DNA of 64,000 bases, taken from contig CASCGD010000003.1 of the NCBI GenBank assembly GCA_949132985.1, forward strand, positions 1,147 to 65,146. Reading direction: 5' to 3'. The notes below the pieces were generated by a model. It saw only the letters and a program-made list of their open reading frames with translations. It made no database searches and had not been told where the DNA came from. The position numbers and the translations under genes were made by a program. Position 1 is the stretch's first letter; every line of letters starts with the position of its first letter. The stretch is from an uncultured Lachnospiraceae bacterium (GTDB taxonomy: Bacteria; Bacillota; Clostridia; Lachnospirales; Lachnospiraceae). This document shows, one piece after another, positions 13,703 through 56,208 of the stretch.

Positions 13703-14359
13703 ATGGATAGATTAACAAGTACGCAAATAATAGAGCACGCAGATGGGACTACTCATGAACAGATGTATTGCTTTGATCATCTCTGGGGTCCGGCGTATTT
13801 CAAAAAGGGCACAAAAGATTATGACGAATATCTCCAATTAGTAAAACGCCTTGTTGAATACGAAAATACCGGCCTTACACCGGAGCAGATCAAGGAGATG
13901 GACAGGCTCTACAAAGCAAAAAGCGAAGAGCTGGCGGAGTGTAAAGCACGGCAGCAGGACAACACCTTAAACCTGCCCTGCAAGATCGGGCAGGAGGTAT
14001 ATATCGTCAGCTTAAACAGGACCGGGTATACCACGGGCGAAGTCGTATCTATCAAAATCGGCGCACATGGGGTGTCACTGCGCATTTATATCCCGTCGGA
14101 TAAGCAGCATATCAACCGCGCGTTTGAGCAGATCGGCAAGAGTGTGTTTTTCGAGCGAGCATCAGTTGAAAAGGCATTGGTGGTGAGGAGGGAATGTACA
14201 CATGAACATAACACCAAGAAAGGCATCAGATCGGGGCGGCTATCTAATGATGCCGCTTGTAAAAAACATCCCAGAGCCGAAACATCCGGAATGGAGACGG
14301 ACAACCTGCCCGGCATGTGGTCGGGAGTGCTGGGAGCGACCTCTTCCGGCAGGATTTGA
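13703..14359 (+). CDS. Hypothetical mosaic phage protein
   Basis: RL.EYENTGLTPEQI and LPCKIG modules. Confidence 0.65.
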   Translation: MDRLTSTQIIEHADGTTHEQMYCFDHLWGPAYFKKGTKDYDEYLQLVKRLVEYENTGLTPEQIKEMDRLYKAKSEELAECKARQQDNTLNLPCKIGQEVYIVSLNRTGYTTGEVVSIKIGAHGVSLRIYIPSDKQHINRAFEQIGKSVFFERASVEKALVVRRECTHEHNTKKGIRSGRLSNDAACKKHPRAETSGMETDNLPGMWSGVLGATSSGRI

Positions 14360-43935: not shown

Positions 43936-44710
43936 AATAAAACTTGCATCCAAACACAACTACGGAGGATGGCGGGATACAAAACAGATCAAATACATCG
44001 TCCTGCATTATACCGCGGTTGATGGAGACAGCGACGAGGGTAATGCAAGCTACTTTGCAAGGCCGCACGATCCCAAGACGTCGGCACATTATTTTGTGGA
44101 TGACGACTCAATTACGCAGTCCGCGCCAGATAATTACATTGCCTATGCAGTCGGCGGCAAGCGCTGGGAGGACTGCAGGCAGACCGGAGGCGGCAAACTC
44201 TACGGCAAGGCCACCAATGCCAACACAATCAATATCGAGATGTGCGACAGCAAAAAGGACGGTGTGATCATGGCGCAGCCTGCGACGATCACGCGCACGA
44301 TCAAGCTGGTACGCCTGCTGATGGACAAGTACAATATCGATATCGATCATGTGATCAGACACTTTGACGTCAACGGCAAGCACTGCCCGGCCTATTACAT
44401 GGATGCGGGAGCGTGGGCTGCATTTAAGGCGCGCATCCTTGGCTACAGGGCCGGCAACAAGTACAGGACGGCCAAGCCCTGCTATCTGCGCCTCTCACCT
44501 GCTGGCAAAAAGCTCACCTATGAGGAGGCACCGGATCACATCAAGGCAAAATCCATAAAAAAGAAGGGGTATATCTCCTTCAAAAAAGGCGCGATCTTCA
44601 AGCTTGTCGAAGTTGCCGAAAAGAACGGCGATCTCTGGGGCAGGATGAAAACCGGCTATTGGGTACCGCTGCGCTATAAGAGCGCCCTGCGGGCGATCAT
44701 CTGCAAATAG
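43925..44710 (+). CDS. Endolysin, N-acetylmuramoyl-L-alanine amidase (Amidase_2)
   Basis: YIVLHYT, SAHYFVD, IEMC, RHFDVNGKHCP. Confidence 0.93.
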   Translation: MKIKIKLASKHNYGGWRDTKQIKYIVLHYTAVDGDSDEGNASYFARPHDPKTSAHYFVDDDSITQSAPDNYIAYAVGGKRWEDCRQTGGGKLYGKATNANTINIEMCDSKKDGVIMAQPATITRTIKLVRLLMDKYNIDIDHVIRHFDVNGKHCPAYYMDAGAWAAFKARILGYRAGNKYRTAKPCYLRLSPAGKKLTYEEAPDHIKAKSIKKKGYISFKKGAIFKLVEVAEKNGDLWGRMKTGYWVPLRYKSALRAIICK

Positions 44711-44721
44711 GGGCAGTCAAT

Positions 44722-44751
44722 ATAACAGGCGGCATTATGCCGCCTGTTATT
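44722..44751. terminator. Bidirectional terminator
   Basis: ATAACAGGCGGCA-tta-TGCCGCCTGTTAT between convergent genes. Confidence 0.85.
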
Positions 44752-45445
44752 ACTGAATCCATGCCTCCTGCGGCATATTGTCTAAAATACTGTCAAGATC
44801 CCGGAACGCGTTGCCTTTCCATGTGAATTGGAATCCGCTCGTTTCTTCATCTGCTTTTTCGTATAATTCTTCGATCTGCCTCACCATCTGCAAATATCCT
44901 GTATTCTGGTCGCGTAGGATATCCAGCGCGGACTTGATGCAGTCGTACCGGTACCGCAATCCGATATAGGATTGATAGGTTCCAAAACAATACCGCATGG
45001 CTTTGATTAACTCGTCTTTTGTAAGGCGTTTCAGCTTCTTTGCCGCTTCATCATTCGCCCATTCGCTTTCATAATAGCCTAATCCATAATAGTCATGTTC
45101 GTATATATCGTATCCAAGCATTTCACCGCCTTTATTCACGGCAGCAAAAAAGATATCAAAATATTCCGGCACATATTCATTCCGGAGGTCGTCCCACATC
45201 CGTTCGCATTCACCGGCCAGATCACCAAACATCATCTTAAATTCAAAGGCATCGTCCTCATCCCCATCAAGGGTATTGATGAGTGTGTCCTCATCCCCGT
45301 CAATATAATACTGCACTTCGTCGCACGCTTCCCCTATATCCCATAGGGCTTCCTGTATATCATCGAGGTTCAGCCCTTTCGCAAGCGGTTTCTTATAGCG
45401 TAAATTCTTCGCTTTCAAGCGCTTTGTTTCCTCTGCATTTATCAT
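44750..45445 (-). CDS. Acidic hypothetical protein (accessory island, left arm)
   Basis: 231 aa from MINAEE; AGAAAGTGAG RBS. Confidence 0.8.
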   Translation of the reverse strand: MINAEETKRLKAKNLRYKKPLAKGLNLDDIQEALWDIGEACDEVQYYIDGDEDTLINTLDGDEDDAFEFKMMFGDLAGECERMWDDLRNEYVPEYFDIFFAAVNKGGEMLGYDIYEHDYYGLGYYESEWANDEAAKKLKRLTKDELIKAMRYCFGTYQSYIGLRYRYDCIKSALDILRDQNTGYLQMVRQIEELYEKADEETSGFQFTWKGNAFRDLDSILDNMPQEAWIQ

Positions 45446-45451
45446 CTCTGT

Positions 45452-45747
45452 CTCACTTTCTCCCTGCATTACCCGGCAGGGACGGGAAAACGGTTAATGC
45501 TCAATCAGTTGACTATAAATTTGATCTGCTGCTTCTGGATCAGCGTCAAGCATATCAAACGTATCTTTGATTCTGGCATATACTTCCGAAACGATAGCCT
45601 TCTGTGTGATTGCCTTATCTTCTTGATTGATTCTGCCTGCTTCAAAAGCGTATCCGTCAATCAGTTCCTTTAAAGATTTTGTCCTGTAATGCATATCTCT
45701 TGCCATATCCTCCTCACTTTCTCCCTGCATTACCCGGCAGGGACGGG
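45452..45747 (-). repeat. Two identical 35-bp repeats (45452-45486, 45713-45747); structural variants at 45951-45980 and 46638-46670
   Basis: CTCACTTTCTCCCTGCATTACCCGGCAGGGACGGG occurs twice. Confidence 0.92.
45494..45706 (-). CDS. Small hypothetical protein
   Basis: 70 aa from MARDMHY; RBS within the repeat. Confidence 0.7.
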   Translation of the reverse strand: MARDMHYRTKSLKELIDGYAFEAGRINQEDKAITQKAIVSEVYARIKDTFDMLDADPEAADQIYSQLIEH

Positions 45748-45754
45748 GTAGAAG

Positions 45755-45940
45755 TTACATTGTAGTGTTATTGATAGTCACCATAATTTCACTTAAAGCA
45801 CTTAAGCAATCCTCCGCTATGCTTACATCAGACAGGAACAATTCATCTTCTCTGGATTCTGGTTCTTGGTCAATTATGTTTCTTGCCTTTTTGATATATG
45901 CAAGCACTCTTTCAGAATTTCTTTTATTCATCTGTTTCAT
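45755..45940 (-). CDS. Small hypothetical protein
   Basis: 61 aa from MKQMNK; purine-rich RBS. Confidence 0.65.
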   Translation of the reverse strand: MKQMNKRNSERVLAYIKKARNIIDQEPESREDELFLSDVSIAEDCLSALSEIMVTINNTTM

Positions 45941-45983
45941 ATCTTCCCTTCTTTCTCCCGGCGCAACCCCGCCGGGTGGGTGG

Positions 45984-46250
45984 TTAATATACGCATGCTT
46001 CTGCAATGCTGTTTTCGATAATTGAATAAGTGTCAATCTCTAACTTGTACTCTTCTTCGCTTATTACACCGAGTTCATGGTCAAGTTCAGCGTCTTCATA
46101 TAATTTTCTGTTCATGTCCTTGAAAACTTTCCTGCCGTATTTTGTAAATGATAAGTAGAGTTCAATTCCGCATGATGTTCCATATCTTTTTGCCATTTCT
46201 AATGCTTCTTTGCGAGAGTGGTTGTATTCGTTTTTATAATTTCTTTTCAT
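45984..46250 (-). CDS. Small hypothetical protein
   Basis: 88 aa from MKRNYKNE. Confidence 0.65.
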   Translation of the reverse strand: MKRNYKNEYNHSRKEALEMAKRYGTSCGIELYLSFTKYGRKVFKDMNRKLYEDAELDHELGVISEEEYKLEIDTYSIIENSIAEACVY

Positions 46251-46314
46251 TTCCCATATCTTCCGTTCCTTTGATATTGCCGGTTTAAAGGGTTTCCGGC
46301 GTCCTATATGGTTG

Positions 46315-46548
46315 TTATGCAATCCCGTAGAGTCTGGTAGATTTGCGGAAGGTTTTAAGGACTCCGCCCGGCGTCCCATCCGGCTTAATCGTCCAGTGTG
46401 TATGTATACCGGAGAAATCGCTGCACAGACGTACGGTTATGGTCTTAGGGGTCTCCCGGACGATCTCGACCACATCAAACAAAAATCCGTCTGCCTCTGC
46501 TAACTGTGTACCAACCTTAATGTTACCTGCTAAAATGATGCTTGCCAT
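46315..46548 (-). CDS. Small beta-rich hypothetical protein
   Basis: AGGAGGT RBS, 77 aa. Confidence 0.75.
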   Translation of the reverse strand: MASIILAGNIKVGTQLAEADGFLFDVVEIVRETPKTITVRLCSDFSGIHTHWTIKPDGTPGGVLKTFRKSTRLYGIA

Positions 46549-46701
46549 AGTTTATACCTCCTGTATGAAAAGTGCTGATTATAGTTTCTTTTATGTTGGA
46601 TTTTCACCCCGAAGCTATTCAGCCGGTTCCGGTCGCTGTTGCCGAACTCTACGCCCCGGCAACCGGGCGGTTAAAAGTGTTTTGTTCTTGTTTCTGTAAT
46701 T

Positions 46702-46746
46702 ATAATAACACTAATATTAGTGGTTGTCAACACTGATATTAAAGTT
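46702..46746 (-). promoter_or_regulatory. Strong leftward promoter TTGACA-17-TATTAT with two palindromic operators
   Basis: AACACTAATATTAGTGGT at 46707 and AACACTGATATTAAAGTT at 46729. Confidence 0.85.
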
Positions 46747-46826
46747 TTTTGAAAAATATTTTTGGAGTTGATTTTATGAAGCCTGTGTATTATAATGATG
46801 AAAAGTCAAAGAAAGGGAGTGGAGAA

Positions 46827-47054
46827 ATGTGGCGTTACAAGATTGATATTTTGAAAGAATTATCGAATAGAGGATACACAAGTACTAAAATGAGGAAAGA
46901 CAAAATAATGTCAGAAGGGACAATGCAGCATATCAGGAAGGGGAAGGGAATATCAGTTGATACACTGAATACGATATGTTTGATATTGCGATTGGAACCA
47001 TCTGATATAATAGAAATAATACCAACAGATGAAGAAAAGATAAAATATTTTTAA
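46827..47054 (+). CDS. Small XRE/HTH_26 repressor (Aca-like)
   Basis: MSEGTMQHIRKGKGISVDTLNTIC..L...PSDIIE; own promoter TTGATT-17-TATAAT. Confidence 0.88.
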   Translation: MWRYKIDILKELSNRGYTSTKMRKDKIMSEGTMQHIRKGKGISVDTLNTICLILRLEPSDIIEIIPTDEEKIKYF

Positions 47055-47055
47055 A

Positions 47056-47100
47056 AACACTAAAATTAGTGTTGACACATACCAAAAAAGGTGTTATTAT
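47056..47100 (+). promoter_or_regulatory. Strong rightward promoter TTGACA-17-TATTAT with two operators
   Basis: AACACTAAAATTAGTGTT at 47056 and CATACCAAAAAAGGTGTT at 47078. Confidence 0.85.
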
Positions 47101-47155
47101 ATAATTGTCCAAAGGGAACGGCGGACAATAACTCGAAAGGGAGAAAGGAGAACAG

Positions 47156-47326
47156 ATGAACGATATGGCAACAAACAAGCAGCTACAATTTATCACATGG
47201 TTGATAACAACGGCAACCGACAAATGCCAGACAATCGAGGAAGTAAGGGAGCTGAACAAGGAAATTCGCAAACACTCCGACGGACTGATTGATGAACTGG
47301 CAGAACAGAACAAAGGGGCTGAATAA
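47156..47326 (+). CDS. Small hypothetical protein (56 aa, MNDMATNKQLQF...)
   Basis: GAAAGGAG RBS; hand-translated. Confidence 0.65.
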   Translation: MNDMATNKQLQFITWLITTATDKCQTIEEVRELNKEIRKHSDGLIDELAEQNKGAE

Positions 47327-47636: not shown

Positions 47637-48419
47637 ATGGGTATATGGGAAAAACTGTTGGAAACGTATGACACATATTGTGAGAGCGGGCGCGTAGCGC
47701 CCGTTGCGCATACGCGGATTATTATGCATATTGGGGTAGTATTGGATAAAGAGTCAAACGTGCTCGTTGCGGCAAAGGGGAAACAGTCCATACTCGCTCC
47801 GTGCACGATTGACTCCGAGTGCAGGACAAGAAATGTTGCCCCGCACCTGCTCCACGACAACGTATCGTACATTGTGCCGGGCGTGGACGATAAAAGGCAC
47901 AGGGCATACCTTGAGCAGTTGGGGGCGTATGTGTCACAGGTGAACGATCCGCTAGCACAGATCATATACGATTATGTAAAGCGGGAGACGATTGCAGATG
48001 ATTTGAAACATCTGGTCGATCTGGCGGATAGGAAAAATAAAGGTCTTGTTATTGGATTTGGGATAAGGGACATACCGGAGACGCTGGATGCGTCGATAGA
48101 TACGATATGGACGGATTATTATTTGTCCACTCTTCCCATAAATGGGATATGCGGCATCACCGGACAGCCGGATCATATACCGGGCAAATATCCGGGGAAT
48201 ATCAGGCATCCAAGTGACATGGCAAAATTGTTTGTCGGTAAAGATACAGATCCTTTGTGCAGTATGCCAAAGATAAAGGCGGGCTATATTGCCAGCCAGA
48301 AAATTATACATATGCTGCAGGCAATGCACGGAGGATGGGTGGAGCAAGACGAATTGCCTTTGACCGATTGTGTATTGAGGGTGGGTGATCTTGCACACGA
48401 AGAAAGAGCGGAATTATGA
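47637..48419 (+). CDS. Orphan, C-terminally truncated Cas8c/Csd1-like protein
   Basis: W.KL.ETYD, PVAHT, PCT..S..RT...APH.L.D...Y, YLEQL, GIC.ITG...P..IR...D.AKL, SQK. Confidence 0.75.
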   Translation: MGIWEKLLETYDTYCESGRVAPVAHTRIIMHIGVVLDKESNVLVAAKGKQSILAPCTIDSECRTRNVAPHLLHDNVSYIVPGVDDKRHRAYLEQLGAYVSQVNDPLAQIIYDYVKRETIADDLKHLVDLADRKNKGLVIGFGIRDIPETLDASIDTIWTDYYLSTLPINGICGITGQPDHIPGKYPGNIRHPSDMAKLFVGKDTDPLCSMPKIKAGYIASQKIIHMLQAMHGGWVEQDELPLTDCVLRVGDLAHEERAEL

Positions 48420-53288: not shown

Positions 53289-53735
53289 ATGTCAAAGCCG
53301 GAAGAAAAAATAACGGATGCGGAGCTGGAGGTCATGCAGGCCTTGTGGGAGGCGAAGGGGCCGATGACGCTGGCGCAGGTGAAAGCGGCGCTTGCCGGGC
53401 GCAACAAAGATACGACAAAGACGCTGCTTCGCCGTTTGTGTGAAAAGGGAGCGGTAGGGCAGGAAAAGAGGGAGGTTTATTATTATTGTCCATTGGTGGA
53501 GCGGGATGAGCTGGGGCTTTACCGCACCGGCCGTCTGATCGAAAAGCTCTATGCGGGGAGTGCAAAGGCGATGGTGGCGTCTCTGGTGGAGCATGAGCAG
53601 CTTGGCCCGCAGGACGTGGAGGAGCTGCGGGAGCTGTTCGCCAATTTGACGGGGAAGGCAGAGCGCAAAGCGCCTTTTGAGACAACTTCCGACGACCTGC
53701 CCGTGAATGGAGACAGGCGGGCATTACATCATTAA
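53289..53735 (+). CDS. BlaI/MecI/CopY family repressor
   Basis: ITDAELEVMQALW...TKTLL.RL..KG. Confidence 0.92.
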   Translation: MSKPEEKITDAELEVMQALWEAKGPMTLAQVKAALAGRNKDTTKTLLRRLCEKGAVGQEKREVYYYCPLVERDELGLYRTGRLIEKLYAGSAKAMVASLVEHEQLGPQDVEELRELFANLTGKAERKAPFETTSDDLPVNGDRRALHH

Positions 53736-53748
53736 AGGAGGCAGGCAT

Positions 53749-56208
53749 ATGGCAGATTTTTTGTTCCGTTTTTTACAGATGAGTGCGGTGGGTTCCCTGA
53801 TGGCGGGGCTGATCTTTCTGTGGCATCGCTTTCTTCGGAAAGAGGCGATTAACACGATTTTTTATTATATGTGGCTGCTTGTATTGCTGCGGCTGTGTGT
53901 GCCCTTTGGCGTTACGGTTTCGCTTCCTGTGGTCGGGGAATGGGCGTTTGAATCGGAGCGGAGGCTGGAAGACGGGGGAGCGGAGAGGCTGGCATCTGCG
54001 GAGAAGTCCGATGCGGCAGGGAAAGACCAGCCGGAATTTACAGGGAAGCAGGGTGCGGCAGGGAAAGACCGGCTGGAATTTGCAGGGAAGCAGGGCGCGG
54101 CAGGGAAAGACCAGCCGGAATTTGCAGGGAAGCCCGGTGCGGCAGAGAATGCTCCGCGGCTATCGGACGCGGGGAATGTGCTGCGGGAAGCAGGGCGCGG
54201 CTTCCAGGATTTTTTAAGCATTCCCTGGCTGTGGGTGCTTCTGTGGAGTGCAGGTGCGGTGGTCTGTCTGGGGCGCTATGTGACAGGATATGTTCGTTTT
54301 TACTGTGCGGTGAAAAGGGCTGCATTGGAGGCTTCGCCGAAAGCGCAGGAGGTATTGTGTGAACTTGATCCGGATGGCCGTGTCCGCATTCTGGAGTGTC
54401 CCTTTGCGGCGACGCCGATGCTGATGGGGCTTTTGCGGCCGACCATTGTTTTGCCCGTCGGTGTTGAGGACAAACAGCGGTTAAAGGATATTGTGACACA
54501 TGAGCTGGTCCACGCACGCCGCCATGATCTGCTCTATAAATGGTTTGCAGTGGCAGTGACGAGCCTCCACTGGTTTAACCCGGTTATGATTCTGGTGCGA
54601 AGGGAGATCGGCCGTGCCTGTGAGCTGTCCTGCGACGAGGCGGTGATGCGCGGCATGGACGGGGAAGAGCGGCTGCACTACGGAGAGACGCTGCTGAGTC
54701 TGGCGGCAGCTCATCCCGGCGGTTTAAGGCTGGTAACGATGACGTTGTGCGAGGAGAAAAAGCAGTTAAAGGAACGGCTGGTGTCCATCGCAGCCTATCG
54801 AAAAAAAGGAGCGGCGGCCGTGCTCGTGTCTGTGTATGTGTTAATCTTTTTGTGCAGCTGTGGGACGATTTCCGGTGCAGATTTTGTGAGGGCGGACGCG
54901 CCGGGAGAGAAAGCGGGCGGCAGCGCTTCCGGGATGAATCCGGCGGGAGAGAGCGAAGCGGTGGATATGGCAAATGCCGGGGCTGCGGATGTTCCGCAGG
55001 ACAGCGCAAATGCCGGGAACGGATCAGAGGATGACGGTTCGGACGGGAACCGGAGTAAAACGGCGGTGCTGCTTCGGGAAGCGCTATTGGGAGAAAGACC
55101 GATTCTCTGTGCGAACGGTGAGGACGCGCCTGTCTCCATGAACATTGATGATGTGCCGGATATTTTCGACCCGCACAGCGAATATGCGAAGATCTGGCAG
55201 TTTACGGTGATTGATCTGGACGGGGACGGCGAGGAGGAGGCAGTTCTGCGCATTTTAGGCTTGTCGGGCGATATGGGCGGCTGCCTGGTGCTCCACTGTG
55301 CGGATGACGAGGTGCTCGGTTTTGCCACAAGCTATCAGACGTTTGAAGTGCTCAAGGCAGACGGAACGTACAACGGCAGAGGGGGAGAGATACTGGACGG
55401 TGTTTGCAGGATGGGTTTTGAAGGGAATACCTGTACCTTTGACTGGCTGATTTCCTGTACGTTTTCCGATGCCGGGGAACAGACAGAGCAGGAGGAGGGC
55501 TATCCGGAGCTTTCTTATTATGTGAAGGGCGCATCCGTCAGTGAGGAGGAATGGAGCGCGGCAGTGAATGAGCAGGGTGAAAAGGAGGATGCTGAGTGGA
55601 GCTTTTATTCGAAAGCGGCGGTCGAGAGGCTGCTGACGGAGGATGGCGGCCTTCCGTTTGAATATACCCCGGACGATGCGGAAGCGGAAGACGGAACCGG
55701 CAAAGATTCAAAAACGAGTGATCAGAGCCGCGATGCCCGGGAGAAGAAGAATCTGGAGGACATGTATCAATTTCCGGTGCGCGTCTCCGATACGCGGTTG
55801 CTGACGGTGGTGCTTGATACGTCAGAGCCGGAAAAGAATTATTTTTCTGTGGAACGGATATACGTTTATGACGGCGATACGCTCATACAGACCATAGAGA
55901 CGGCGGAGCTGACACTGCCGCAGGATTACCTGTGGGAAGGATTGTTTGTAAACAAAGGCCATGCGGAGGGTGAGCCGGATGTTCGGGACGTGAACTTTGA
56001 CGGGGCGGAGGACTTCGGGCTTTTGTGTGCAGCTTCTTACCCGAAAAATCTTCCGTTCACGTACTTTTACTGGTTTGAGTCGGAAGGAAAGTTTGTGCAG
56101 GGCTTCACCATATTCGGCGGCAGGGCGCTGGAGGTGGATGAGGAGCAGAAATGCCTGATTGAGCACTGGTATGATGTGAACGGGGAGCATACGACCCGCT
56201 ATGCGTGA
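53749..56208 (+). CDS. BlaR1-type M56 metallopeptidase
   Basis: HELVH, HWFNP, CELSCDE, TM segments. Confidence 0.92.
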   Translation: MADFLFRFLQMSAVGSLMAGLIFLWHRFLRKEAINTIFYYMWLLVLLRLCVPFGVTVSLPVVGEWAFESERRLEDGGAERLASAEKSDAAGKDQPEFTGKQGAAGKDRLEFAGKQGAAGKDQPEFAGKPGAAENAPRLSDAGNVLREAGRGFQDFLSIPWLWVLLWSAGAVVCLGRYVTGYVRFYCAVKRAALEASPKAQEVLCELDPDGRVRILECPFAATPMLMGLLRPTIVLPVGVEDKQRLKDIVTHELVHARRHDLLYKWFAVAVTSLHWFNPVMILVRREIGRACELSCDEAVMRGMDGEERLHYGETLLSLAAAHPGGLRLVTMTLCEEKKQLKERLVSIAAYRKKGAAAVLVSVYVLIFLCSCGTISGADFVRADAPGEKAGGSASGMNPAGESEAVDMANAGAADVPQDSANAGNGSEDDGSDGNRSKTAVLLREALLGERPILCANGEDAPVSMNIDDVPDIFDPHSEYAKIWQFTVIDLDGDGEEEAVLRILGLSGDMGGCLVLHCADDEVLGFATSYQTFEVLKADGTYNGRGGEILDGVCRMGFEGNTCTFDWLISCTFSDAGEQTEQEEGYPELSYYVKGASVSEEEWSAAVNEQGEKEDAEWSFYSKAAVERLLTEDGGLPFEYTPDDAEAEDGTGKDSKTSDQSRDAREKKNLEDMYQFPVRVSDTRLLTVVLDTSEPEKNYFSVERIYVYDGDTLIQTIETAELTLPQDYLWEGLFVNKGHAEGEPDVRDVNFDGAEDFGLLCAASYPKNLPFTYFYWFESEGKFVQGFTIFGGRALEVDEEQKCLIEHWYDVNGEHTTRYA
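54013..54145 (+). repeat. In-frame 42-bp tandem repeat, ~3.2 copies (AAGKDQPEFTGKQG)
   Basis: Units start at 54013, 54055, 54097, 54139. Confidence 0.9.

Follow-up and report, generated by a model that had tools for sequence, protein, structure and literature searches.

Four short sequence motifs with the arrangement a-b-a'-b' lie on the minus strand of a 64,000-nt stretch of DNA (the window, to which all coordinates refer; contig CASCGD010000003.1) from an uncultured Lachnospiraceae bacterium, within a leftward prophage operon. A conserved intercistronic linker of about 50 nt, running from the stop codon of one small open reading frame (ORF) to the start codon of the next, exists in two variants, A and B, and motifs 1-3 are copies of these. 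Motif 4 forms hairpin P1 of another element, a leader RNA of 96 nt with two hairpins (model R1) that replaces a different leader, C, in a few phages. The operon belongs to a class of repressor-controlled accessory operons with interchangeable small ORFs, found at the lysis-proximal end of temperate Lachnospiraceae phages. A preliminary description of the DNA had presented all four motifs as H-type pseudoknots; it lacked the assignment of motifs 1-3 to the modular linkers of a hypervariable cassette array and that of motif 4 to a larger leader RNA.

Organization of the operon

Phage genes for tail proteins, a holin and an Amidase_2 endolysin occupy the plus strand as far as 44710, and genes of the host (RecQ, a BlaR1-like peptidase, amylase and HydF) start near 50 kb, which places the leftward operon (46700-44750) at the right end of a prophage. 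Its promoter, a TG-extended TTGACA-17-TATTAT sequence on the minus strand (46702..46730), has a palindrome, CACTAATATTAGTG, in the spacer. All of the following elements are on the same strand. The 96-nt R1 leader (46583..46678), which contains motif 4, precedes gene A (46315..46548, 77 aa). Linker C (46248..46276, TATCAAAGGAACGGAAGATATGGGAAATG) is internal here, lying between gene A and the second gene, an 88-aa cassette ORF (45984..46250). The type B linker with motif 3 (45938..45986) leads to a 61-aa cassette ORF (45755..45940), copy 2 of the type A linker with motif 2 (45704..45757) to a 70-aa cassette ORF (45494..45706), and copy 1 with motif 1 (45443..45496) to an acidic cassette ORF of 231 aa (44750..45445). 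No Pfam or PHROG family matched any of the five ORFs. A homologue of gene A, 74% identical, is the second gene after the R1 leader in loci L076, L082 and L087. Because C is internal (46276-46248), the window operon can be seen to have an extra upstream unit, consisting of promoter, long leader and gene A, and a second A slot. Between the end of the operon and the convergent endolysin gene is a hairpin, ACAGGCGGCA-TAA-TGCCGCCTGT (44725..44747, minus strand), which probably acts as a terminator in both directions. The linker elements are restricted to this operon in the host genome.

A gene for a Cro/C1-type helix-turn-helix (HTH) protein diverges from the operon on the plus strand (46776..47054). 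It is flanked by the leftward promoter and by a mirror-image TTGACA-17-TATTAT promoter on the plus strand (47072-47100), and both promoters carry a palindrome (CACTAATATTAGTG and CACTAATTTTAGTG, respectively). The HTH protein is likely to be the repressor of both, and the arrangement resembles Aca-like control of two cargo operons that diverge from each other.

Homologues of the 231-aa ORF, with 46-63% identity, are present in other phages (L001-L006). The linker is absent upstream of the gene in these phages, and the loci were therefore unusable for covariation; they also indicate that this cargo gene lives outside the linker scaffold as well as within it. At L001:3180-3990 and L002:2700-3375, the homologue follows a putative methyltransferase-like gene, so labelled from a DPPY motif alone, either directly or after a few small ORFs, with an ordinary short intergenic region.

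Geometry and base rates of the motifs

The four motifs were read directly on the minus strand and found again by an independent pattern scan. Motifs 1 (45486-45462) and 2 (45747-45723) have the same sequence, CCCG-T-CCCTGC-CGGG-TAAT-GCAGGG, and are embedded in an exact 35-nt repeat for which 0 chance matches are expected. Motif 3 (45980-45957) reads CCC-A-CCCGGC(G)-GGG-(G)TTG(C)-(C)GCCGGG and motif 4 (46669-46638) reads CGCCC-G-GTTGCCG-GGGCG-TAGAGTT-CGGCAAC. The preliminary description had located them correctly to within a few bases. The geometry that it gave, a 1-nt loop 1, no loop 2 and a stem 2 of 6-7 bp, was also borne out, with a stem 1 of 3-5 bp and a loop 3 of 3-7 nt in all four. Its statement that three copies abut a ribosome-binding site and that one lies near the 5' end of the transcript agrees with the adjacent Shine-Dalgarno (SD) and ATG sequences and with the predicted promoter, since motif 4 begins approximately 25-30 nt downstream of the predicted transcript start of the TTGACA-17-TATTAT promoter. 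The motifs have the H-type topology, that is, the a-b-a'-b' order with loops able to span the opposite stems. A single nucleotide can bridge the deep groove of 6-7 bp. The loop lengths therefore suit an H-type pseudoknot in which the 1-nt loop 1 crosses the deep groove of stem 2.

A topology scan of both strands of the window (128 kb), set to a loop 1 of 1, a loop 2 of 0, a stem 2 of at least 6 and a stem 1 of at least 3, returned the four motifs and 8 background sites. All 8 background sites had a stem 1 of 3 bp, and a stem 1 of at least 4 bp was exclusively found at the motif sites. The pattern with a stem 1 of 4 and a stem 2 of 6 occurs 71 times in the 3.17-Mb genome (6.3 Mb over both strands). 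A fairer base rate than this raw count is given by hairpins that already exist: among 4398 GC-rich 6-bp hairpins in the genome, a stem 1 with the same loop 1 and loop 2 lengths reaches at least 3 bp in 1.7%, at least 4 bp in 0.48% and at least 5 bp in 0.09%. The presence of a stem 1 in two unrelated hairpin families on one 1.2-kb transcript is thus not a matter of chance. Nested folding recovered the stem 2 hairpins alone, with ordinary z-scores of -1.0 to -1.6.

Conservation of the A and B linkers

The 2.1-kb operon was searched against 401 Lachnospiraceae genomes. Most of the matches were 30-50 nt long with 91-98% identity, and those in other genera of the family, of about 45 nt, were confined to the linkers. 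These short matches map to the three motif-bearing intergenic regions and to the gap between the first and second genes, while the intervening genes were unmatched. A blastn search of the operon against 50,697 phage records gave zero matches. Pattern scans located A and B linkers in about 30 IMG/VR viral contigs, invariably on the coding strand in the order stop codon, linker, ATG, and usually as B followed by A 200-270 nt further on. The window copies are spaced 235-261 nt apart, with ORFs in between.

Each linker consists of a stop codon, a short spacer, a GC-rich stem-loop, AGAAAG, an SD sequence and ATG. The type B linker of the window has TAA, a C-rich tract, the hairpin CCCGGC(G)/(C)GCCGGG, AGAAAG, SD and ATG, and most type B copies read TAACCACACCACCCA-CCCGGCGGGGTTGCGCCGGG-AGAAAG-AAGGGAAGAT-ATG. 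Type A is composed of the stop codon, TTTYAT, CCCGTCCCTGCCGGGTAATGCAGGG, AGAAAG, TGAGAAGGAT and ATG; in copy 2 of the window these appear as TAA, spacer, motif, AGAAAG, GAGGAGG and ATG. The common tail is GGGAGAAAG(T/A)..GATATG. The two types differ at about 10 of the 25 core positions, yet they occupy equivalent slots. A hybrid linker in genome G250 (locus L019), CCCG-A-CCCGGC-CGGG-CAAT-GCCGGG, combines the stem 1 of type A with the stem 2 of type B; further linker types with other hairpins were not seen in G250. The hybrid (L019:1024-1521, minus strand) precedes a gene for a 166-aa GGACT/AIG2-like gamma-glutamyl cyclotransferase. Neither promoter-like sites nor hairpins with a T-run were found in the A and B linkers, and the region 44500-47300 contained 0 terminator-like sites.

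An ungapped alignment of 45 distinct A and B copies (alignment A3) was used to evaluate constraint. Per-column variation per copy was 1-5% from stem 1 through AGAAAG, 5-14% from the SD to the ATG and 14-33% in the 5' spacer. Mean identity between copies was 94-95% in the core, compared to 70-87% for homologous cargo genes across phages. The core is far more uniform than the cargo, indicating either strong selection at the nucleotide level or homogenisation by recombination.

One row of A3, L023, is a CRISPR spacer with CRISPR-repeat flanks; its stem 1 cells were disregarded and the result was unchanged. The spacer, CGTTCCTGCCGGATAATGCAGGGAGAAAGT (L023:1501-1530, G022:C80, minus strand), agrees with the type A core in 28 of its 30 positions and belongs to a CRISPR array of about 20 units with the 36-nt repeat ATTATACCATACCAAAGGATATAAGGGAACTACGAC in a Lachnospiraceae genome. 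The match indicates that the conserved linker itself became a target of immunity in a Lachnospiraceae host. The sequence TAATG is present in loop 3 of type A (window 45715-45738 and 45454-45477, minus strand), in which the ATG is in frame 24 nt before the real start and would add MQGESE(E/T)(D/E). This ATG was rejected as a start codon on the grounds that no SD sequence precedes it.

Array scaffold and exchange of cassettes

Walking along the arrays revealed a common scaffold composed of a sigma-70 promoter, leader C, an ORF, B, an ORF, A, an ORF and a terminator, T. The leader slot holds C or, in a few phages, R1. In other phages, linker C (TAGACTTATCAAAGGAACGGAGGATATGGRAAATG) is a short 5' untranslated region straight after the array promoter. 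The array promoters (L041:5150-5260, L047, L049, L036, L056 and L059) keep TTGACA and TATAAT-like hexamers and the same leader C, and each phage has its own palindrome in the 17-nt spacer. The constancy of hexamers and leader together with the variable palindrome indicates that repressor specificity is swapped independently of the cargo scaffold. T has the sequence GAACAGGCGGCAGGATAACACCTACCGCCCTTTTT, also given as GGCGGCAGGATAACACCTACCGCC followed by a T-run, and was located at the array ends in L041 (4428-4460), L040, L054, L057, L053 and L055. Since T overlaps the last codons, unrelated terminal ORFs share the ending EQAAG*. A remnant of T is fused straight to an A-type tail in L059, and the 5' arm of the window hairpin at 44725..44747 resembles T.

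Grouping by sequence gave 42 clusters for the 54 distinct ORFs that follow C, B or A. Ten cargo ORFs from outside the window were scanned, nine of which had no Pfam family; the other was the GGACT/AIG2-like enzyme. Four clusters have members in both slots, after B in one phage and after A in another, and in such slot-swapped pairs the genes are 71-87% identical and nucleotide homology starts at the shared GGGAGAAAG tail. Moreover, a B hairpin is joined to an A tail in L059, the 5' half of a B element has been replaced in L058, and the tail and SD are present without a hairpin in L055 and L059. The chimeric and half-replaced linkers mark the crossover points of cassettes moving between slots. 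A recombinase gene did not turn up near the arrays in the loci examined, for which no systematic search was made.

The R1 leader RNA

In R1, hairpins P1 and P2 are joined by the linker AGCGA, and P2 is followed in most copies by the tail GGTGAAAATCCAACATA (46608-46592, minus strand). P1 (46638..46669) is formed by stem 2 of motif 4, GTTGCCG/CGGCAAC, and the candidate stem 1, CGCCC/GGGCG, would pair the 5' flank with the P1 loop. P2 (46609..46632) has the stem CCGGA.C/G.TTCGG and the loop CGGCTGAATA. Ten homologues with eight distinct sequences were found. R1 is approximately 80% conserved in G379, G162, G168, three contigs of viral or metagenome-assembled-genome origin and one metagenome contig, and is more distant in G002. 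The R1 loci include L010, L012, L017, L076, L082, L087, L088 and L090, and R1 is absent from the other loci that bear A or B. Pattern scans of genome, viral and metagenome contigs for the leader gave just a few homologues; L085 and most matches of one of these scans were chance occurrences in coding DNA. Two matches to the R1 model were judged spurious, one in G147 (E 0.0017), which is within a coding region, and one at window 13915-14003 (E 0.096), which is weak.

Both sides change in 6 of the 8 pairs of P2, and G002 adds the variant CCGGATG/CATCCGG. These compensatory changes indicate that P2 is a genuine structure. P1 (stem 2) has one compensatory pair in G168, and G002 has three. The strong conservation of the 13-nt P1 loop fits a tertiary contact or a bound ligand. 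An alternative RNAfold structure for motif 4, in which CCGGUUGC pairs with GCGACCGG, was not kept in the homologues. R1 precedes unrelated genes in different phages, and in G379 it stands at the head of an array that has B and A linkers. This makes R1 an alternative module for the leader position, as opposed to a site of autoregulation by a single protein. In G168 (L088), R1 is followed by a long hairpin (GGGCTTGT...ACAAGCCC TTTGGG) instead of an ORF, which hints at an attenuator or a stand-alone small RNA.

R1 has zero counterparts in Rfam. At the gathering threshold of Rfam 15, the sole match in the window was a GA-cis RNA (RF02987, 41.6 bits) on the plus strand at 53646-53732, where a 172-aa ORF ends and the gene for the BlaR1-like M56 peptidase (53707-56208) begins, the RNA overlapping this gene start. 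The Rfam search suggested in the preliminary description gave nothing relevant for the motif region (45300-46900), even at E<=10. In the adjoining plus-strand operon, a 260-aa ORF (47637-48419) matches only the N-terminal 224 positions of Cas_Csd1 (Cas8c) with an E value of 9e-17.

Evidence for stem 1

In the A/B family, 96.7% of the stem 2 cells are paired and one pair changes from U-A in type A to G-C in type B. For stem 1 the paired fraction is 83.9%, and pair 17-25 changes from G-C in type A to C-G in type B. All of these changes lie between the types, and the covariation thus amounts to one event per stem. Uncompensated or wobble changes are exemplified in stem 1 by L029, L060 and L036, and in stem 2 by L036, L048, L047, L027, L018 and L093. 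The outermost stem 1 pair is confined to type A; the stem 1 of type B is just 3 bp and competes with a seventh pair of stem 2. In R1, the only substitutions retained in stem 1 are C-to-U changes opposite G, while G162 loses 2 of the 5 pairs and G002 needs a bulge. Furthermore, a nested 3-bp extension predicted by RNAalifold (positions 12-14 with 47-49) competes for the 5' arm of the R1 stem 1 and is a possible rival to it.

The nested minimum energies were -12.2 kcal/mol for A, -16.0 for B and -15.4 for the leader P1 region. The corresponding pseudoknot energies were about -12.5, -14.2 and -15.2 kcal/mol, respectively, rough values estimated by hand from Turner stacks, an initiation penalty of 9 kcal/mol and 0.3 per loop nucleotide. 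Since the energies are equal within the error of the model, thermodynamics leaves the choice between pseudoknot and hairpin undecided.

In both families the alignments provide covariation support for stem 2, and stem 1, the additional stem of the pseudoknot, is plausible. The earlier claim of H-type pseudoknots therefore stands in part: the geometry permits the fold, the motifs are non-random and stem 2 covaries, but stem 1 shows one flip, wobbles and several breaks. Covariation in stem 1 had been put forward as a check of that claim. It gave the single G-C/C-G flip between A and B on the one hand, and only wobble changes or breaks in R1 on the other.

Discussion

The architecture of the linkers was read directly, and from it we infer their function. 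The explanation that we favour, and regard as probable with considerable room for doubt, is that the motifs belong to modular linkers between shuffled cassettes that combine the roles of insulator or stabiliser, translation-start context and recombination homology. With a hairpin just ahead of an unstructured, A-rich tract and the SD, translation of every cassette would start in the same context regardless of the upstream ORF. The hairpin would probably also serve as an exonuclease barrier, in the 5'-to-3' direction after cleavage and in the 3'-to-5' direction for the upstream cistron. In Firmicutes, 5' stem-loops are known to protect RNA against RNase J1, and the RNase J roadblock proposed in the preliminary description would be reasonably compatible with such linkers. 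At the DNA level, 30-50 nt of near-identical sequence could offer the homology needed by phage recombinases to swap cassettes, and recombination at the linkers would also keep them uniform. Stem 1 may form, making a compact H-type pseudoknot with added stability, although the evidence does not require it.

Several observations weigh against this explanation. The hairpin-less linkers of L055 and L059 indicate that the hairpin is not essential for expressing a cassette. Within type A or type B, both stems show wobble or uncompensated mismatches with no compensatory change. The loops, including loop 1, are about as conserved as the stems, which a generic stable-hairpin role would not need; this conservation points instead to a specific ligand, a tertiary structure such as a pseudoknot, or homogenisation by recombination. 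Finally, the proposed role in recombination is deduced from mosaic patterns.

The possibility was considered that all four motifs are true H-type pseudoknots whose compact fold is functional, either as a 5'-to-3' block to RNase J1 before each cistron or in the control of translation. The required complementarity, with its 1-nt loop 1 and no loop 2, is rare among hairpins and yet is present in two unrelated families on one transcript, and the topology is retained in four sequence types (A, B, the L019 hybrid and the leader). The flip of pair 17-25 between A and B, the C-to-U changes in the leader stem 1, all of which are opposite G, and the equal conservation of loops and stems that a tertiary fold predicts point in the same direction. 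However, stem 1 is broken in three type A copies (L029, L060 and L036), has 3 bp in type B in competition with the seventh stem 2 pair, and in the leader lacks 2 of 5 pairs in G162 and has a bulge in G002. The leader also has nested alternatives, the rough energies are no better than those of nested folds, and some slots are entirely without a hairpin. A functional pseudoknot at all four sites is accordingly a possibility that we hold only tentatively and regard as rather doubtful. It is unlikely, though worth weighing, that the linker core is instead a sequence-specific site, as an RNA or DNA hairpin, at which a conserved protein of phage or host origin acts to co-regulate or process all of the cassettes, for example a translational repressor or an endoribonuclease. 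The entire 31-nt core, loops included, is near-invariant while cargo and operators differ, its orientation and distance to the SD are fixed, and the authors of the mycobacteriophage SAS/ESAS study raised the same possibility for their elements (PMC3203893). On the other hand, no candidate protein co-occurs with the arrays among the loci examined, equivalent slots hold A or B although about 10 of 25 core positions are different, and slots without a hairpin exist. An extended proposal, in which the 31-nt core, as pseudoknotted RNA or folded DNA hairpin, is recognised by a dedicated trans-factor, the arrays act as a phage 'mini-integron' that exchanges and expresses anti-defence ORFans, and R1 is a ligand- or protein-sensing riboregulator that gates operons of this kind, is speculative and seems improbable.

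An integron-like arrangement, in which a site-specific recombinase would capture cassettes at the hairpins as attC-like sites of folded DNA, would account for one promoter, promoterless ORFs bounded by imperfect hairpins and cassettes in varying slots. Sites of the attC type are much longer, approximately 60 nt or more, and are imperfect palindromes with R and L boxes and an adjacent integron integrase. The hairpin here is 25 nt, lacks RYYYAAC/GTTRRRY ends and is conserved in sequence, not in structure alone. Crossovers occur at the shared single-stranded tail and at T, with no defined point in the hairpin, and no recombinase gene turned up near the arrays, again without a systematic search. 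We consider this arrangement very improbable. Still less credible is the view that the motifs are functionless chance complementarity in GC-rich hairpins or decoy RNAs resembling type III antitoxins. The ordinary z-scores of the nested folds would suit chance, which is excluded by the base rates and the conservation across phages. The decoy idea, raised in the preliminary description, found no support: there are no tandem repeats of 34-36 nt of the kind that lie beside the endoribonuclease toxin gene in type III systems, no adjacent toxin gene and no Rfam match. Two further roles were rejected. As a stimulator of stop-codon readthrough or frameshifting, the hairpin begins 4-9 nt past the stop codon in most copies, but the distance from stop to ATG is 49-54 nt and the frame is not kept between copies, and on this basis a fusion product was rejected. 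A genome repeat of the repetitive extragenic palindromic or miniature inverted-repeat transposable element (REP/MITE) kind was rejected because the elements are restricted to this operon in the genome.

Gut Lachnospiraceae phages are experimentally almost unstudied, and the locus has a defined architecture composed of a promoter with swappable operators, standard leaders, two hairpin-RBS (ribosome-binding site) linkers and a terminator from which the ORFs at the array ends take their last codons. The shuffling within this architecture involves at least 40 unrelated ORFans, which are probably anti-defence genes. The linkers provide a simple sequence handle to mine such cargo in metagenomes, natural 'insulated' translation-start parts, and a testable case for the long-standing view of short conserved sequences at module boundaries as drivers of mosaicism in phages. 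Formation of stem 1 would also place them among the smallest pseudoknots that recur immediately 5' of ribosome-binding sites in bacteria. R1, in which one helix covaries well, is a new candidate for a structured RNA.

Comparison with known systems

The 5' pseudoknot of T2/T4 gene 32 mRNA has a loop 1 of one nucleotide. The motifs would share its compact H-type topology with coaxial stems, and motif 4, like the gene 32 pseudoknot, is at the 5' end of a phage mRNA. In the account of Holland et al. 1999 as cited in PMC5684407 (PDB 2TPK), the gene 32 structure nucleates the autoregulatory binding of gp32, a single-stranded DNA-binding protein, on its own mRNA. Here, in contrast, the motifs are mostly intercistronic and have no sequence or Rfam similarity to it. 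The downstream genes are unrelated, family-less ORFans that differ between phages, so that no autoregulated single-stranded DNA-binding protein is encoded there and the gene 32 analogy of the preliminary description does not extend to function.

The AcrIIA22 loci are hypervariable small-ORF regions at clostridial prophage-host junctions (Forsberg et al. 2021, PMC8545432). The host genus, CAG-217, and the genes differ, and that paper reports no conserved intergenic elements (the words 'intergenic', 'hairpin' and 'stem-loop' have 0 occurrences). Similarities are the short arrays of small ORFs with rapid gene turnover, the position at a prophage-host junction in gut Clostridia and the anti-defence cargo, which is probable for the present arrays. 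Moreover, no recombinase was reported there, just as none turned up near the present arrays, where the search was not systematic.

In the SAS and ESAS elements of Cluster K mycobacteriophages (Pope et al. 2011, PMC3203893), for which a role in translation initiation or a trans-factor was suspected, a conserved sequence a few nucleotides before the starts of non-structural genes from different families has an inverted repeat directly upstream, as is the case here, and both kinds of element lie in unusually long intergenic gaps. Unlike the present tail, GGGAGAAAG(T/A)..GATATG, the SAS consensus is 5'-GGGATAGGAGCCC. In ESAS, arms of 17 bp enclose a spacer that varies, and pseudoknot-type complementarity was not reported. 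There are 11-19 SAS sites per phage over half the genome, whereas the linkers number 2-5 per phage in one operon with cassette shuffling, and the hosts belong to another phylum.

The promoter-early stem-loops (PeSLs) of T4-type phages (Arbiol et al. 2010, PMC2839356; Comeau et al. 2014, PMC4122927) are small conserved stem-loop cassettes that flank ORFans in hyperplastic regions, where recombination between copies shuffles modules, as is probable at the linkers. A PeSL comprises a sigma-70 promoter and a terminator stem-loop, whereas the A and B linkers have neither promoter nor U-tract and carry an SD and start context inside one polycistronic transcript. In their working, the linkers would appear to be closest to the T4 PeSLs and the mycobacteriophage SAS/ESAS, as members of neither group but as a comparable arrangement in the phages of gut Lachnospiraceae.

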